Source: an uncultured Gammaproteobacteria bacterium
GTDB taxonomy: Bacteria; Patescibacteriota; Patescibacteriia; UBA2196; GWA2-42-15
Assembly: GCA_964573135.1 (NCBI GenBank)
Contig: CAZNIO010000008.1
Location: 1 to 58,633, forward strand
Length of the DNA: 58,633 nt
Direction of reading: 5' to 3'
Below are positions 3,041 through 15,913 of this stretch, piece after piece; position 1 is the first letter of the stretch, and the number at the start of each line of letters is the position of its first letter. Made by a program: the position numbers and the translations under genes. The notes below the pieces were generated by a model. It ran no database searches and was not told the DNA's origin. It worked only from the letters and a program-made list of their open reading frames with translations.

Positions 3041-3805
3041 TTAATTTTCTAAGCTAACTATTTCTCGGGCCAATTTATTATACGCTCGCGCTCCTTTTGA
3101 TTTACGATCATAATGTAAAATAGATCTACCATAAGATGGCGCTTCAGCTAAACGAATATTTCTTGGAATAACTGTACGAAAAATTCTATTAGGAAAATAT
3201 CGATAAAGCTCATCAAATACTTCACCAGTTAATTTATGCTTATCATCATACATTGTCATCAATGCTCCAAGTATTTTTAAATTTGGTTTTATATTCTCCT
3301 TAATCAAATTAATTGTATTAATTAGCTGACCCAGTCCTTCCAGGGCATAATATTCACACTGTACTGGAATTAAAATCTCTTCTGCCGCCACCAGCCCGTT
3401 AATAGTCAAAAGCCCCAATGAAGGAGGTGAGTCTATTATAATATAGTCATACTCATTTTTGACTTCTCCCAAAATATTATGCAACTTAAATTCTCGGTCA
3501 TCATGAGGCACTAATTCGATATTCGCCGCCGCTAAATTTTGATTAGCTGGTGCCAATTTTAACCCATCATGAACTGTTGGACATATTATATCCCGCAAAG
3601 TATGTGGTCCGGTCATCACTTCATACAATCCATGTAAAAGATTACCATGATCCACTCCAAGCCCAGAAGAGGCATTGGCTTGCGGGTCTAAATCCACTAG
3701 TAAAACCGACTTACCATGATGTGCTAAATAAGTCGCCAAATTAACGGCTGTCGTAGTTTTACCAACTCCACCCTTTTGATTAACAATAGAAATAATTCTT
3801 GCCAT
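3041..3805 (-). CDS. parA: Chromosome partitioning ATPase ParA/Soj (start moved from 3847 to the ATG at 3805)
   Basis: Deviant Walker A QKGGVGKTT, DLDPQAN, DSPPSLG, IPRNIRLAEAPSYG; a promoter lies within the longer ORF extension. Confidence 0.96.
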   Translation of the reverse strand: MARIISIVNQKGGVGKTTTAVNLATYLAHHGKSVLLVDLDPQANASSGLGVDHGNLLHGLYEVMTGPHTLRDIICPTVHDGLKLAPANQNLAAANIELVPHDDREFKLHNILGEVKNEYDYIIIDSPPSLGLLTINGLVAAEEILIPVQCEYYALEGLGQLINTINLIKENIKPNLKILGALMTMYDDKHKLTGEVFDELYRYFPNRIFRTVIPRNIRLAEAPSYGRSILHYDRKSKGARAYNKLAREIVSLEN

Positions 3806-10962: not shown

Positions 10963-12096
10963 ATGGCCTTAGACACAAATCAGCAAATCAACCAGCTCAT
11001 AGCTAAGTCAAAACAAATTCTAATTGCTTCCCCTGCTAAAAATTCGGACGACAGCCTTTGCTCTTGTCTTGCTCTTTTTAAATTATTTGAAAAAATAAAT
11101 AAACCAGCTGATTTAATCACTGAAAATCCCCAAAAAAATAGGCTAGCCTTTTTGCCCCAAAGCGATAGCATTAAATCAAATATTGACTCTCTACAAAAAT
11201 TAACAATTTCTCTAGATATTAAGGATAATAAGATTAATGATTTTAGTTATGACATTACAGATGATAAGCTCAATATTTTCCTCACCCCTCAAAAAACAAA
11301 TCTAACCAAGGATGACATTTCAATTCAGCAAAGTAGCTTTAAGTATGATTTAATTATTACCATTGGTTCACAAGACTTAGAGTCTCTTGGAGGTTTGTAT
11401 CAAAAAAATACAGACTTTTTTTATTCCACTCCTATTATAAACATAGATACATCTCCAAGCAACGAACATTTTGGCCAAATCAATCTAATCGACTTGAGCG
11501 CCTCATCAACCACAGAAATTATCTTTGACCTTATCAATTCAATAAATCCAAAATTCATCGATGAAGATGTAGCTACTCATCTTCTGGCTGGTACCATTAT
11601 TAAAACAAAAAGTTTTAAAGACCCACGCACCACTCCCCGGTCACTGTCCCTCGCCGCTGATCTTATACGACTCGGGGGCAAAAGAGATTTAATTGTCAAT
11701 CATCTATATGGCAATAAAAAACTATCAACCCTAAATCTCTGGGGAAGAGTCCTGGCTCGTCTAAAACAAGATACTCTCTACAAAATGGCCTGGTCAATGA
11801 TCAGTCAAACTGATTTTGAAAGAGCCGGTGCCACTCAAAATGACCTTCAAGGTATTACCGAAGAAATTCTTCTTAATTCTCCCCAAATCGAAACTATCCT
11901 TATACTCTATGAAACTAAATCAGGTCAAATAGCCGCTGAACTGCATACTTCAAAAAACTACGATGCCCTTGAACTTACTCGCGCTTTTGGACCTTTGGGT
12001 AATACATCTAGAGCTGATTTCTACCTTGAAACCGACAAGCTCTTTGAAGCTGAGGAAATGACTGTCAATCAAATAAGAAGTAGGATAAAAATCTAG
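10963..12096 (+). CDS. DHH-fold phosphoesterase-like protein with degenerate catalytic motifs
   Basis: DHH layout recognisable (ILIASP..SDDSLCS, PIINID, NEHFGQINL, SSTTEIIFDL, VATHLLAG), but DHH reads DTS, the GxxxDT motif reads GTIIKT and there is no GGGH. Confidence 0.7.
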   Translation: MALDTNQQINQLIAKSKQILIASPAKNSDDSLCSCLALFKLFEKINKPADLITENPQKNRLAFLPQSDSIKSNIDSLQKLTISLDIKDNKINDFSYDITDDKLNIFLTPQKTNLTKDDISIQQSSFKYDLIITIGSQDLESLGGLYQKNTDFFYSTPIINIDTSPSNEHFGQINLIDLSASSTTEIIFDLINSINPKFIDEDVATHLLAGTIIKTKSFKDPRTTPRSLSLAADLIRLGGKRDLIVNHLYGNKKLSTLNLWGRVLARLKQDTLYKMAWSMISQTDFERAGATQNDLQGITEEILLNSPQIETILILYETKSGQIAAELHTSKNYDALELTRAFGPLGNTSRADFYLETDKLFEAEEMTVNQIRSRIKI

Positions 12097-12169
12097 ATTG
12101 ATCAAATCTAGATTGATTAGTAGTTGAGAATGGTATACAATATATTATATATTGACCATTTTAATTATA

Positions 12170-12198
12170 TTGTCCTTACCAAATATATATGGTAAAAT
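12170..12198 (+). promoter_or_regulatory. Promoter with an overlapping inverted repeat (putative operator), upstream of the HTH/LAGLIDADG-tRNA cassette
   Basis: TTGTCC, 17 nt, TG-n-TAAAAT; TTACCA-N8-TGGTAA (12176-12195) overlies the spacer and -10. Confidence 0.55.
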
Positions 12199-12246
12199 GA
12201 ACTTAGGAGAAATAATAATATAATTACTATCTTAAAGTTCATTTAT

Positions 12247-12921
12247 ATGGCACGCGCAAAAGACCGAGAAAAGGCTCTGTCACTTAGAAAACAGGGCATG
12301 AGTTATAGCCAAATTAAAAAAATAATTGGGGTAGGCAAAGGCACTTTAAGCAACTGGCTTAGAGATCACCCCCTCTCAAAGGAAAGAATCAGGGAGCTCG
12401 TTTACTGTAACGAACAAAGAATAGAGCGCTGCAGGGAAACAAAAAGAAAGAAAAAAGAACAACGATTGCTCAACTATTACAATGAAGAGAAAAAAAATAT
12501 ATTTCCTCTTACAAAACGAGAATTCTATTTGGCTGGACTTGTTCTATACTGGGGAGAAGGGACTAAAAGACACTTAGCTACCCTGGCTGTTACAAATACA
12601 GATCCTGCTGTAATCAAATTCTTTATTATATGGACCATCAAAGCACTGAAATTCCCCAAAGAAAAAATTAAAATGCGCTTACATCTATATACCGACATGG
12701 ATATCAAAAAAGAAACACTCTACTGGTCAAAAACACTGAATATACCCCCAAAACAATTCACCAAGCCATATATCAAGCAAAGTTCAAGTGAAAGAATAAA
12801 TTATAAAGGCAGATTTGGTCATGGAACTTGTGTAGCCCAAATAGGGAATGCGAGGACAACTGAAAAAATTTTAATGGCCCTAAAAGCCATTGCAGACAAA
12901 TATAACGAGGAGCGCCTGTAG
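12247..12921 (+). CDS. N-terminal helix-turn-helix plus single-motif LAGLIDADG-like domain protein
   Basis: HTH-like ALSLRKQGMSYSQIKKIIGVGKGTLSNWL; LAGLIDADG-like FYLAGLVLYWGEG, then LAVTNTDPAVIKFF and YWSKTLNIP; stop codon lies inside the tRNA-Ile. Confidence 0.65.
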   Translation: MARAKDREKALSLRKQGMSYSQIKKIIGVGKGTLSNWLRDHPLSKERIRELVYCNEQRIERCRETKRKKKEQRLLNYYNEEKKNIFPLTKREFYLAGLVLYWGEGTKRHLATLAVTNTDPAVIKFFIIWTIKALKFPKEKIKMRLHLYTDMDIKKETLYWSKTLNIPPKQFTKPYIKQSSSERINYKGRFGHGTCVAQIGNARTTEKILMALKAIADKYNEERL

Positions 12922-12987
12922 CTCAGGGGTTAGAGCACCTGACTTATAATCAGGTTGTCGATGGTTCAAATCCATCCAGGCGCACCA
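12912..12987 (+). tRNA. tRNA-Ile (anticodon UAU), CCA encoded
   Basis: Acceptor GCGCCTG/CAGGCGC, D stem GCTC/GAGC, anticodon arm CCTGA-CT TAT AA-TCAGG, T arm GATGG-TTCAAAT-CCATC, discriminator A plus CCA; 76 nt. Confidence 0.92.
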
Positions 12988-12988
12988 G

Positions 12989-13078
12989 GGACGCATAGCT
13001 CAGTTGGTTAGAGTGCTTGCTCGACACGCAAGAGGGTTTAAAAGGTACAGTGTACCTTTTAAACGGTTCAAATCCATT
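12989..13078 (+). pseudogene. Disrupted tRNA-Val(GAC)-like gene with a 29-nt hairpin in the variable region and no 3' acceptor strand
   Basis: GGACGCA-TA-GCTC-AGTTGGTTA-GAGT, CTTGC-TC GAC AC-GCAAG, hairpin 13036-13064, GGTTCAAATCC, then a T-run instead of TGCGTCC-CCA. Confidence 0.7.
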
Positions 13079-13089
13079 TTTTTGATATA

Positions 13090-13166
13090 GGGCGGTTAGC
13101 TCAGTTGGTTAGAGCGCGTCGTTGACATCGACGAGGTCATTGGTTCAACTCCAATATCGCCCACCA
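13090..13166 (+). tRNA. tRNA-Val (anticodon GAC), CCA encoded
   Basis: GGGCGGT/ATCGCCC acceptor, CGTCG-TT GAC AT-CGACG, ATTGG-TTCAACT-CCAAT, ACCA; 77 nt. Confidence 0.95.
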
Positions 13167-13208: not shown

Positions 13209-13772
13209 ATGCCTAAACTACCAAAAATCCCATATAAACTATTAGAAAAAAACAACAAGGAAAAAAGTTATTGTATGAATTTATCAGATAAGCTCCGTAT
13301 TCTTGCAAAAACCACTGTAAGTTTTCTAGTACGAGATAATGTGGACACCGCTGAAAAAAACTTTCCAGCCATGGAAAAATTATTCAAACAAATCCAGACA
13401 AAACTCCGCCAAAATCCATATCTTTACAGCGTAACACCAATTAATTATGGACTTGAAGAATATATTGAAGCTCTACTTGTCTGGAGTTATATGAATAATA
13501 AACCAATGCCAACCATTGCTAAGCTCAAAGTTACTCCAGAACTTTACCTTGGTGCTTTGTCTGATATGACAGGCGAACTTGTCCGCTTGGCACGTAAAAA
13601 TGAACAACAAGCTAAAAGTATTCATGACTATGTAGCTCATATATATGCCCTAATTATCCCAGTCTCAATTACCAGAAACTCCAATCTCCGCCACAAACTA
13701 GAAACCATTGGTAATAATTTGAAAAAAATTGAAGGCATAATCTACGATTTGAAACTAAGGGACAAAATTTAA
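13209..13772 (+). CDS. Translin/TRAX (C3PO)-family protein (start moved to 13209 because the longer ORF overlaps tRNA-Val)
   Basis: GLEEYIEA and PELYLGALSDMTGELVRLA match the TRAX catalytic motifs (ExxE and DxxGE) as I recall them; all-helical, 187 aa. Confidence 0.82.
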   Translation: MPKLPKIPYKLLEKNNKEKSYCMNLSDKLRILAKTTVSFLVRDNVDTAEKNFPAMEKLFKQIQTKLRQNPYLYSVTPINYGLEEYIEALLVWSYMNNKPMPTIAKLKVTPELYLGALSDMTGELVRLARKNEQQAKSIHDYVAHIYALIIPVSITRNSNLRHKLETIGNNLKKIEGIIYDLKLRDKI

Positions 13773-13778
13773 TACTTA

Positions 13779-14778
13779 CTGTGAATTACGAAACTCCCAA
13801 AAGAGCTCATAATGATGTAAAATTAAGGTAGTGTATTACTAACTAAAATTCTACACCACTATGAGAGCTTTTGTACCCATGTACAATTCAATCAAAGTTG
13901 TAGTCAATTTCTTTAGTAAACAATTACACTTTGATAAGTACAAATCCAAAACAGGTCGAAAGTTAGCTTTACCAATTGAAGATATCGTATCACTTGCTAT
14001 CTTCAAGCAGAAAAACAACATTGCTACAAAACGTGCTCTTTACAACATATTGAAACCAAATTGCTCATACAAGACACTGGTAGTTAATCTGAATAGATGG
14101 TTTTTCCTGGCAGTAATTATCCTAGTCCTTTTGATGAAGTTAAATAGGAGGAATACTCATTTGGTAAAACACATTGATTCCACTGAACTGCCGGTTTGTT
14201 TATTCAAGAATGCCCATGCTCATAAGACCATGAGAGACTACGCTGAATACAGGAAGAAAGGAAATACCACATTTTATGGGCTCAAACTACACATTATTAC
14301 TGATTTGAAACAAAGATTGTTATCAATTAACTTTACTGGAGCCAAGACGGATGATCGGGCAGTGGTCATTAAAATGGCTGACGATTTAACTGGCATATTC
14401 ATGGCTGATGCAGGGTATATATCAGATAAGTTGTCACGAGAATTCTATCAGGAACATAAGCGTGTGTTACTCGCTAAGCCAAGAAGTAATATGAAAAAGA
14501 TGATGACTCAATTTGAAGAAATGCTTTATCGTACAAGGATGTTAATTGAACTAAACTTTAGAGATTTAAAATTATTCCATGGGCTAGTAACTAGCCTGCC
14601 AAGATCAGTTGGAGGATATTTAGCTAACTATATCTACTCCATACTGGCTTATCAAATTGTTTAAATTGTGAAAAAGAACTTTACTACAATTCTACCTATT
14701 AACAGACAAACTTGAGTAATCAAGGATTATTTTGGTTATCCAAGTTTATTCGTTAAATGTGAGTTTCGTAATTCACAG
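13779..14778 (+). mobile_element. IS982-family insertion sequence, about 1000 bp, complete
   Basis: Perfect 18-bp terminal inverted repeats CTGTGAATTACGAAACTC (13779-13796) and GAGTTTCGTAATTCACAG (14761-14778), flanked by a TACTTA direct repeat (13773-78, 14779-84). Equivalent reading: AC...GT ends with an ACTT duplication. Confidence 0.9.
13861..14664 (+). CDS. IS982-family DDE transposase
   Basis: HIDSTELPVC, FYGLKLHII, FMADAGYIS, RMLIELNFRDLK. Confidence 0.88.
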   Translation: MRAFVPMYNSIKVVVNFFSKQLHFDKYKSKTGRKLALPIEDIVSLAIFKQKNNIATKRALYNILKPNCSYKTLVVNLNRWFFLAVIILVLLMKLNRRNTHLVKHIDSTELPVCLFKNAHAHKTMRDYAEYRKKGNTTFYGLKLHIITDLKQRLLSINFTGAKTDDRAVVIKMADDLTGIFMADAGYISDKLSREFYQEHKRVLLAKPRSNMKKMMTQFEEMLYRTRMLIELNFRDLKLFHGLVTSLPRSVGGYLANYIYSILAYQIV

Positions 14779-14838: not shown

Positions 14839-15852
14839 TTATTCCCCCAACCTCAAATTAGCATTTGTCTTTATTTTCTTCCAATCACTAAATTTCTTAT
14901 TCTTAATCTTGTAATACCCAGCCGCTGCAATCATCGCTGCATTATCCCCTGTCATCTTCATATCAGGCACTAATAATTTAACTTTATCTAATTTGCTACC
15001 AACCTCTTTCTTCAATGAATCCCGTAAATTCTCATTAGCCGCCACTCCCCCTCCAAGAAGTATTGTCTTCACCTTAAACTCTTGAGCCGCTTTAATAGTT
15101 TTATTTACCAAAACCTCAACACATGCTTCTTGAAAAGAAGCACACATATCTTGATTTTTTATTCTTCCCTCTCTCATCTTGTAAAGTACCGCTGTCTTAA
15201 TCCCAGAAAAACTAAAATTATAATCTCCCGAATTAATCATCGGTCTAGGCATTTCAACTTTACTTGCGTTTCCTTTCTTGGCTAGCTTAGAAATCACGGG
15301 CCCACCAGGATAGCCCAAATTCATCATCTTTGCCACCTTATCAAAAGCTTCACCCACTGCATCGTCTTGCGTTTCGCCAATTATCTTGTATTTCAAATAA
15401 CTTTCCAGTAATACTAATTGTGTGTGCCCCCCAGAAACTATCAAAGCCAAAGCAGGAAATTTTAATTTACCTAACTTTCTAGAATTACTCATCTCAGCTG
15501 AGTAAATGTGGCCCTCCAAATGGTTAACTGCCACCATTGGCTTCTCCCACGCATAACTCAAAGTTTTACCTGCCTCTACCCCTACTCGCAAACTAGTAAT
15601 TAATCCCGGTCCATTAGTTAGCGCGATATAGTCAATTTGTTTACCTTTTTTTCCTAATACTTTCTCCAAAACAGGTATCATATACTCCACCTGTTTACGG
15701 GCTGCAACTTCCGGCACAATTCCACCATATTTAGCTTGCAACTGAGATGACGATGAAATTACATCTTTAACCACCTTAAAAACACCGTTTTTAACCTCTA
15801 AAACAGCTACCGCAGTCTCATCACAGCTTGTCTCAATGCCAAGTATGCGCAT
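14839..15852 (-). CDS. tsaD: tRNA N6-adenosine threonylcarbamoyltransferase TsaD (start moved to 15852)
   Basis: MRILGIETSCDETA, GGIVPEVAAR, NHLEGH, VSGGHT, DDAVGEAFDK, GDNAAMI. Confidence 0.97.
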   Translation of the reverse strand: MRILGIETSCDETAVAVLEVKNGVFKVVKDVISSSSQLQAKYGGIVPEVAARKQVEYMIPVLEKVLGKKGKQIDYIALTNGPGLITSLRVGVEAGKTLSYAWEKPMVAVNHLEGHIYSAEMSNSRKLGKLKFPALALIVSGGHTQLVLLESYLKYKIIGETQDDAVGEAFDKVAKMMNLGYPGGPVISKLAKKGNASKVEMPRPMINSGDYNFSFSGIKTAVLYKMREGRIKNQDMCASFQEACVEVLVNKTIKAAQEFKVKTILLGGGVAANENLRDSLKKEVGSKLDKVKLLVPDMKMTGDNAAMIAAAGYYKIKNKKFSDWKKIKTNANLRLGE

Positions 15853-15884
15853 AATACTTAAAAGATAACACAATTCCAATGCAT

Positions 15885-15913
15885 TTGACAAATTCCCTAT
15901 CTTTTGATAGACT
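15885..15913 (+). promoter_or_regulatory. Promoter of the secG-SBP unit; overlaps a divergent tsaD promoter
   Basis: TTGACA, 17 nt, TAGACT on +; TTGTCA, 18 nt, TG-n-TATCTT (15867-15862) on -. Confidence 0.55.

Follow-up and report, generated by a model that had tools for sequence, protein, structure and literature searches.

The open reading frame (ORF) that runs into a tRNA-Ile(UAU) gene in contig CAZNIO010000008.1, taken over its whole 58,633 nucleotides (nt; hereafter the window), is best explained, at about even confidence, as a selfish gene of the free-standing homing-endonuclease type, or one recently descended from such a gene, lodged at the 5' edge of tRNA genes. By its sequence, the window copy belongs to a subfamily in Patescibacteria that is tied to tRNA-Ile(UAU). 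This explanation is favored because the family is linked to tRNA genes well above background, because its C-terminal domain matches I-DmoI and retains two residues that WhiA-type regulators have lost, because the gene is dispensable, because several loci bear signatures of insertion, and because the ORF is less congruent with its neighbors than host genes are among themselves.

On sequence grounds the window ORF is a real gene, since 1747 database proteins match its product at E≤1e-3 and the best 120 of them share 60-71% identity with it, nearly all at a length of ~224 amino acids (aa); a chance ORF or an annotation artefact is ruled out by the same 1747 homologues. The named sources among the best 120 are Patescibacteria, and the proteins are labeled only 'helix-turn-helix domain-containing protein' or 'hypothetical'. 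Genomic relatives of the ORF were found at 515 places among 185,579 species-representative genomes. The window DNA derives from a salt-lake metagenome, and exact contigs from public runs back the assembly over the ORF/tRNA region. The ORF starts with ATG, codes for 224 aa and ends in GAG CGC CTG TAG (12910-12921), followed by CTCAGGGG. The tRNA-Ile gene that it enters, with anticodon TAT, was called by ARAGORN and scores 76.8 bits with the Rfam tRNA model against a gathering score of 29. As the original prediction held, the stop codon lies inside this tRNA, where TAG forms U8-A9-G10 and the two genes overlap by 10 nt (Table 1).

Linkage to tRNA genes was examined at the best 80 of the 515 genomic matches, 4 of which end too near the gene to judge. 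A tRNA-Ile(UAU) gene adjoins the ORF in all 76 judgeable related Patescibacteria loci; the two share a strand in 75 of these, whereas the tRNA of L067 is inverted. The tRNA begins anywhere from 80 nt ahead of the reading frame's end to 105 nt beyond it. The anticodon is UAU in every judgeable related locus among L001-L080 and in many loci without the ORF; in most bacteria AUA is instead read by a lysidine-modified CAU tRNA. Upstream of the gene stands ftsH in ~50 related loci, whereas the window has a DHH-family gene in that place, and the common downstream neighbors in related loci are tRNA-Val(GAC), rplS and an RluA-like gene.

The association extends to more distant relatives. A profile of the C-terminal domain gathers a superfamily of 3654 clusters (at 50% identity) at E≤1e-3. 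Among distant members (27-33% identity) and extra copies within the fetched loci, 16 paralogues were evaluable, and 14 of these immediately precede a same-strand tRNA with a different identity. Their partners include tRNA-Gly(GCC) (four cases), Lys(CTT), Lys(TTT), Phe(GAA), Asp(GTC), Ser(CGA) and Gln(TTG) (two cases), while the remaining 2 of the 14 partner tRNAs are interrupted by group I introns. The offsets from paralogue to tRNA run from -21 to +144 nt, three of them being overlaps of -10. By comparison, these tRNA-rich loci contain 407 other ORFs of 150 aa or more, of which only 21 (5%) have a tRNA so placed. Because 14 of 16 paralogues precede other tRNAs against this background, a position at the 5' edge of tRNA genes characterizes the superfamily as a whole. 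The adjacency of homologues to tRNA genes, which the original prediction had proposed as a check, is thus found both in the subfamily and, with other tRNAs, in its paralogues.

The group I introns in tRNA genes beside distant paralogues score 56-86 bits with Rfam RF00028 (cut-off 50). An intron-bearing neighbor tRNA is present in 3 of ~11 distant-paralogue loci, directly downstream of the paralogue in two and divergent in one; in L091, a GIY-YIG ORF (3496-3771) lies just past the intron-containing tRNA. The actinomycete members from Actinomadura and Allonocardiopsis are tandem duplications of the whole unit of helix-turn-helix (HTH) plus domain, as would be expected if the working unit is a dimer. 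These two lie 39-43 nt upstream of tRNA-Gln(TTG) and share a synteny of desaturase gene, ORF, tRNA and nucleotidyl-transferase (NTP_transferase/Hexapep) gene. Second, divergent paralogues were also seen in Ile-type tRNA clusters, before tRNA-Gly(GCC) or tRNA-Phe(GAA).

In the window protein and its homologues, Pfam and NCBIfam recognize only the N-terminal HTH. Pfam HTH_23 gives 22.0 bits on the window protein (E 1.5e-4), under its cut-off of 24.6, and matches 41 of 41 aligned close homologues with a best E of 3e-9, which supports the HTH that had been noticed from the window alone. A profile of 74 diverse superfamily members (A4) matches Cgl2762 (2jn6) and the PAI subdomain of Sleeping Beauty over the same region. 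The likeness of the window protein to transposases is confined to this N-terminal HTH, at 20 bits against a cut-off of 100; no IS630/IS3/IS1-type DDE or recombinase catalytic domain was found by Pfam or NCBIfam in the window protein, or by Pfam in the 41 homologues. The AlphaFold2 (AF2) model of the full protein, built with the family alignment (predicted local distance difference test score, pLDDT, 84), places HTH helices at residues 2-15, 20-27 and 31-37, a long helix at 45-85 and an alpha/beta domain at 90-223. In this model, the long helix would be a linker or possibly a dimerization element.

The C-terminal domain is probably of a derived LAGLIDADG type and still catalytic, an assignment accepted because of a modest profile match together with the conservation of a motif. 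Searched against PDB sequences with hmmsearch, profile A4 matches I-DmoI in eight deposited versions (E 1e-4 to 4e-4), and the alignment pairs LYWGEGxK...SNTDP...helix with the second LAGLIDADG motif of I-DmoI, GLYVAEGDKT...RIWNKN...helix. E104, which aligns to E117 of I-DmoI, is E or D in 73 of the 74 diverse members, and K107, which aligns to K120, is K in 70. Both E117 and K120 are needed for catalysis by I-DmoI (PMC3384342, where text and figure legend number the lysines differently), and residues of this catalytic E/K type have been lost in the domesticated regulator WhiA (PMC3384342). Only the diverse profile reached I-DmoI; a profile of close homologues (A1) had no match in the PDB. An hhalign comparison with an I-DmoI sequence not taken from a database record gave a probability of 15% (E 0.0017) and is superseded by the profile search on deposited sequences. 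Modeled alone, the domain has a pLDDT of 88 and a predicted template modeling score of 0.80, with a predicted order of alpha-(short beta)-beta-alpha-beta-[~45-residue insertion]-beta-alpha that is compatible with LAGLIDADG, the first strand being very short. A single-sequence PDB search with the domain returned nothing significant, and its RecA matches were set aside as repeated chains without a significant stretch. The Pfam model of WhiA has no match in the window protein, in the 41 homologues or among the top families of the 74 members.

The gene is dispensable and shows a spectrum of gain and loss. In an arbitrary sample of metagenome contigs, scanned by exact pattern for the anticodon and T arm of tRNA-Ile(UAU), the ORF is absent from ~65 confirmed tRNA-Ile(UAU) loci within the contig DNA examined. 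Several of these loci keep the Patescibacteria order ftsH, tRNA-Ile(UAU), tRNA-Val(GAC); in L120, L169, L107, L127 and L135, ftsH shares 72-75% DNA identity with its counterpart in ORF-bearing loci, and the gap from ftsH to the tRNA is 11-84 nt or an overlap. The existence of such syntenic loci, and of paralogues beside many other tRNAs, led us to reject an essential factor specific for tRNA-Ile(UAU), such as a modification enzyme. In L149 (184-341, minus strand), all that is left of the ORF between ftsH and tRNA-Ile(UAU) is its final ~35 codons (family positions 187-219), by their sequence a decayed copy, and L049 and L052 are interrupted by an in-frame stop that separates the HTH from the C-terminal domain. 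Pairwise identities of the ORF correlate with those of neighboring host genes at Spearman coefficients of -0.02 to 0.27, compared with 0.31-0.47 for host genes among themselves; the test is rough, with pairs that are not independent and span a narrow range of identities. The empty syntenic loci, the L149 remnant, the in-frame stops and the weaker congruence are consistent with mobility and are not proof of it. No ORF-less joint was found in the source metagenomes of the window when these were searched for population polymorphism.

Several loci also carry what look like traces of insertion. In L081, the first 14 nt of tRNA-Gly, GCGGGAGTAGCTCA, stand on both sides of the ORF; the upstream copy lies 9 nt before the ATG and supplies the stop of an upstream DUF6580 gene, and the downstream copy is at the 3' end of the ORF inside the intact tRNA-Gly. 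In L001, L002, L035 and L007, ftsH terminates within a relic of the 5' end of tRNA-Ile, after which come the cassette and an intact tRNA. The relic in L035 reads AAG CGC GTG TAG CT, and the identical ending in the ORF-less L135 is part of a live tRNA. In L107, which is likewise ORF-less, ftsH terminates in a relic 5' fragment of a tRNA, and a hairpin comes next. An exact 5' relic (TAGCTCA) precedes the ORF in 1 of 74 Ile-type cases, and the argument from relics rests on the four shorter or degenerate cases plus L081. In L087 (2132-2398; 3090-3122), a second copy of the P0215 3' end, GAAGAAATAAAAAAGCATTTCT, lies ~85 nt before the start of that paralogue, which suggests a leftover fragment of an earlier P0215-type copy; the locus holds three tRNAs and many small ORFs of unassigned kind.

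The ORF is preceded by a recurrent leader. A consensus scan of the window found a promoter-like site with a -35 element TTGTCC (12170-12175), a 17-nt spacer and an extended -10 element TGgTAAAAT (12190-12198). Most Ile-type homologues have TTGTTCTTT-N~16-TATAAT upstream, directly followed by GAAC(C/T), and, ~35 nt further on, (A/G)GTTCAATT-ATG. The GAAC and GTTC arms close a hairpin that spans the leader; the closing pair is kept, and the extended stems vary in sequence between loci. The window hairpin has a minimum free energy of -9.2 kcal/mol in RNAfold (z=-2.8), and in 67 loci compared with dinucleotide shuffles z averages -3.0, being below -2 in 69%. By analogy, this element could be a putative binding site of a dimeric protein, that is, an operator for autoregulation; homing endonucleases such as I-TevI act as autorepressors (PMC3384342). 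Alternatively, it could be an RNA structure that masks a weak ribosome-binding site and so exerts translational control. No positionally conserved or enriched -10 box was found in the 3' end of the ORF just upstream of the tRNA, which fits the predicted co-transcription of ORF and tRNA. The window itself has no RNA runs; those for L020, a locus from a Candidatus Microsyncoccus archaeolyticus MAG (PMX.50), gave tRNA-proximal contigs only and are uninformative.

In the scenario that we infer, whose nuclease activity, dimerization, target site, homing and co-transcription are all predicted only, the single-domain protein would dimerize and bind DNA through its HTH and LAGLIDADG surface. The dimer would cut alleles lacking the ORF in or beside the 5' part of the tRNA gene, and repair would copy in a cassette of ~0.75 kb, with its own promoter, structured leader and ORF, directly before the tRNA. 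Insertion at this site would likely do no harm, since RNase P releases the tRNA regardless of what precedes it, and a conserved tRNA would offer a stable target. The stop codon within the tRNA would be a by-product of an ORF abutting the tRNA in that frame. Of the two options that the original prediction had offered, a free-standing homing endonuclease targeting tRNA loci is accordingly the better fit in its adjacency to tRNA-Ile(UAU) and, in paralogues, to other tRNAs; its cleavage of the target stands as a prediction only.

Several results weigh against this scenario. LAGLIDADG enzymes are absent from the top 50 Foldseek matches in the PDB for both the full and the domain AF2 models, where the best matches are non-significant (E≥0.025, TM≤0.4) and include RNA-binding eL30/L7Ae-type proteins. 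Among the predicted viral structures of BFVD, matches are weak (E 0.09-0.8, TM 0.36-0.44); several of the proteins matched contain inteins, and one is annotated as a homing endonuclease. The window protein matches none of the curated LAGLIDADG models (Pfam LAGLIDADG_1/2/3 and Hom_end; NCBIfam), Hom_end appears in 5 of 41 homologues only at E≥0.058, LAGLIDADG models are not among the top families for the 74 diverse members, and hhalign against I-CreI (likewise with a sequence not taken from a database record) gave a probability of 0.08%. Fold support is weak, and the LAGLIDADG-like domain of the original prediction, a good guess, finds weak support in the I-DmoI match and the conserved E and K. 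Clean direct repeats around an insert are, moreover, not expected from classical homing. No systematic difference was found between the tRNA-Ile(UAU) sequences of filled and empty loci; a target within the tRNA would therefore leave the immunity of ORF-bearing alleles unexplained. The coarseness of the congruence test has to be counted here as well, as does the median identity within the subfamily, which at 54% is close to the 58% of FtsH; this FtsH-like conservation, together with the conserved promoter and leader, also fits a regulator that benefits the host.

The first alternative to consider, accordingly, is a DNA-binding regulator domesticated along the lines of WhiA or the I-TevI autorepressor, and we regard it as unlikely. 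Such a protein would bind the repeat in its own promoter and leader and set transcription of the downstream tRNA or tRNA array, for example by limiting a tRNA-Ile(UAU) that could misread AUG. All members have an N-terminal HTH, the promoter and GAAC...GTTC inverted repeat are strongly conserved, conservation equals that of FtsH, and both autorepression by homing endonucleases and domestication, in WhiA, have precedents (PMC3384342). ORF and tRNA also lie too close together for the tRNA to have a promoter of its own between them, and the ORF 3' end has no -10 box at a conserved position; the tRNA therefore probably relies on the promoter of the cassette. However, many syntenic Patescibacteria loci lack the ORF yet have the same tRNA, some copies are decayed or interrupted, and paralogues beside about ten tRNA identities are hard to square with the needs of one tRNA; the catalytic E and K lost in WhiA-type regulators are, furthermore, nearly invariant here. 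The domain may instead bind RNA. LAGLIDADG proteins can act as group I intron maturases, and a maturase-like factor that binds the pre-tRNA or its group I intron, aiding folding, splicing or processing, would fit the introns in 3 of ~11 distant-paralogue loci and the eL30/L7Ae-type proteins among the weak fold matches. It is very unlikely: tRNA-Ile(UAU) and most other partner tRNAs are intronless, loci without the ORF have indistinguishable tRNAs, the fold matches are non-significant, and the HTH with the retained metal-binding and basic residues points to DNA.

The position of the stop codon raises a further alternative, foreshadowed by the original prediction, in which expression of the ORF is coupled to tRNA maturation: RNase P would remove the stop codon, leaving a non-stop mRNA and a product tagged by transfer-messenger RNA (tmRNA), such that output reports tRNA processing. 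The stop lies inside the tRNA in 33 of 76 homologues, at T8-A9-G10 in 28 and deeper in 5, and the exact overlap recurs, besides these 28 loci and the window, in paralogues on other tRNAs; tmRNA genes are present in related genomes. The consequence itself is logically sound, as it follows from RNase P and trans-translation biology provided that ORF and tRNA are co-transcribed. Yet 43 of 76 homologues have their stop ahead of the tRNA, at a distance of 0-105 nt (L049 and L052 among them only via their internal in-frame stop), and the residues coded by the acceptor stem are not conserved (RT, RV, RL, RA, GA, VP and others). Unrelated genes overlap tRNAs in the same manner: in the ORF-less L127 (9869-9878) and L135 (3137-3146), the essential protease gene ftsH itself ends at T8-A9-G10 of tRNA-Ile(UAU), and the DUF6580 gene of L081 ends at the same triplet in the relic tRNA 5' segment. 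Because ftsH and the DUF6580 gene end alike, most homologues stop earlier and the acceptor-stem residues vary, the overlap is a generic outcome of abutting a tRNA in compact genomes and not a selected feature; the conserved TAG terminates any ORF that reaches a tRNA in that frame. A selected stop-codon device is therefore highly improbable, and the proposed coupling is unsupported in that form. Under the homing-endonuclease explanation, the predicted non-stop mRNA may simply keep expression low, which would be tolerable for a selfish nuclease.

The family resembles several known systems in part. I-DmoI is the only solved protein family reached by sequence, with the second motif aligned and the E117/K120 positions kept, but it is a two-domain archaeal monomer encoded inside an rRNA intron and was not recovered by the fold search; the window family is free-standing, and its single domain, in which ~45 residues are inserted between the final two strands, follows an N-terminal HTH and a long helix. 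SegB in the tRNA cluster of phage T4 and F-CphI beside an intron-containing psbA ('collaborative homing') are reportedly free-standing homing endonuclease genes. Like them, the window family lies outside introns and inteins beside a conserved gene that would be its target, and some of its paralogues adjoin intron-containing tRNA genes. Those enzymes are, in contrast, of GIY-YIG or other types and found in phages, whereas the window family is chromosomal, LAGLIDADG-like and found in Patescibacteria and some actinomycetes; a tblastn search of 50,697 phage records with the distant paralogue P0215 as sole query gave no match. WhiA/DUF199 is likewise a chromosomal bacterial protein combining LAGLIDADG-derived and HTH modules (PMC3384342), but has two N-terminal LAGLIDADG domains and a C-terminal HTH and has lost its catalytic residues, whereas here the HTH is N-terminal, the domain is single, E and K are retained and no WhiA model matches. 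Integrative elements that target tRNA genes bring a replacement copy of the tRNA segment that they displace. The family is similar in that its insert is bordered by direct repeats or relics of part of a tRNA, with the tRNA itself left intact. Unlike the window cassette, which is ~0.75 kb, lacks a recombinase and duplicates the tRNA 5' end, those elements are large, encode an integrase and usually duplicate the 3' end. LAGLIDADG endonucleases have been described in rRNA insertions of the candidate phyla radiation, with no mention of tRNA (PMC11270868). Our literature search found no description of a tRNA-linked HTH-LAGLIDADG family and, among the top-ranked results, no paper joining Patescibacteria with tilS or lysidine.

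Table 1. Features of the window and of related loci (L numbers), with coordinates.
Feature	Position	Strand	Basis or remark
Window ORF, 224 aa	12247..12921	+	N-terminal HTH, long helix, derived LAGLIDADG-like domain (putative)
tRNA-Ile, anticodon UAU at 12945-12947, CCA encoded	12912..12987	+	ARAGORN; Rfam
ORF 3' end / tRNA overlap, 10 nt	12912..12921	+	stop TAG 12919-12921 = U8-A9-G10
Putative cassette promoter	12170..12198	+	consensus scan; layout common to most homologues
Leader hairpin / inverted repeat ATGAACTTAGG...CTTAAAGTTCAT	12197..12242	+	from -10 box to 4 nt before ATG; RNAfold
Helix-turn-helix, residues 2-40, HTH_23 / transposase-type	12250..12366	+	Pfam HTH_23, profile A4
Single long basic helix, residues 45-85	12379..12501	+	AF2, pLDDT >90
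C-terminal domain, residues 84-224	12496..12918	+	AF2 domain model
LAGLIDADG-like helix and putative active-site motif KREFYLAGLVLYWGEGTK	12514..12567	+	E104 codon 12556-12558, K107 codon 12565-12567
Group I intron in tRNA gene, L090	825-1020		Rfam RF00028
Group I intron in tRNA gene, L091	3217-3414		Rfam RF00028
Group I intron in tRNA gene, L094	2152-2342	-	Rfam RF00028
Tandem-duplicated member, L083	3001-4683		Actinomadura atramentaria WP_019629257.1
Tandem-duplicated member, L215	2501-4015		Allonocardiopsis opalescens WP_106238207.1
Second paralogue, L005	3160-3857		frameshifted
Second paralogue, L034	6600-7286		
Second paralogue, L030	6210-6911		
Second paralogue, L069	7640-8407		

The surroundings of the cassette in the window show further irregularities. 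The DHH-family gene (10963-12096) lies upstream of the cassette, and a 14-nt direct repeat, AAATCTAGATTGAT, at 12089-12102 and 12104-12117 lies across its stop. Between tRNA-Ile(UAU) and an intact tRNA-Val(GAC) (13090-13166) sits a decayed tRNA-Val(GAC)-like copy (12988-13089), which scores 26.2 bits with the Rfam tRNA model (cut-off 29), has lost its 3' acceptor strand and contains a 29-nt palindrome, GTTTAAAAGGTAC-AGT-GTACCTTTTAAAC, at 13036-13064. Partial tRNA copies also occur in the related loci L107 and L169. Farther 3' are genes for a Translin-family protein (13272-13772), a family uncommon in bacteria, for an insertion sequence (IS) transposase of type DDE_Tnp_1_3 (13861-14664) and for TsaD (14839-15891, minus strand).

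If the homing-endonuclease explanation is true, the HTH joined to one derived LAGLIDADG domain would be a new architecture for homing endonucleases, and the 5' edge of tRNA genes a new genomic niche for them. It would explain thousands of proteins labeled only as helix-turn-helix domain-containing, and it would give a concrete cause for the rearrangements, tRNA fragments and gene-tRNA overlaps in the tRNA clusters of Patescibacteria. For annotation, stop codons within tRNAs would be a generic packing effect and not a signal by themselves. The family could also yield compact, programmable-size nucleases with specificity for tRNA genes, and the shaping of tRNA gene content by selfish elements, including the unusual decoding by tRNA-Ile(UAU), would become testable. 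A bolder version, which we consider quite unlikely, is that the ORF and tRNA-Ile(UAU) move as one unit, such that the cassette spread the UAU tRNA through Patescibacteria by homing into resident tRNA loci and the ORF-less UAU loci are sites where the endonuclease later decayed; the L149 remnant shows that decay of this kind can occur. In that case, the UAU tRNA would allow AUA to be decoded without lysidine, and, more generally, the 5' leader of tRNAs would be an unrecognized safe harbor for a whole superfamily of endonucleases.

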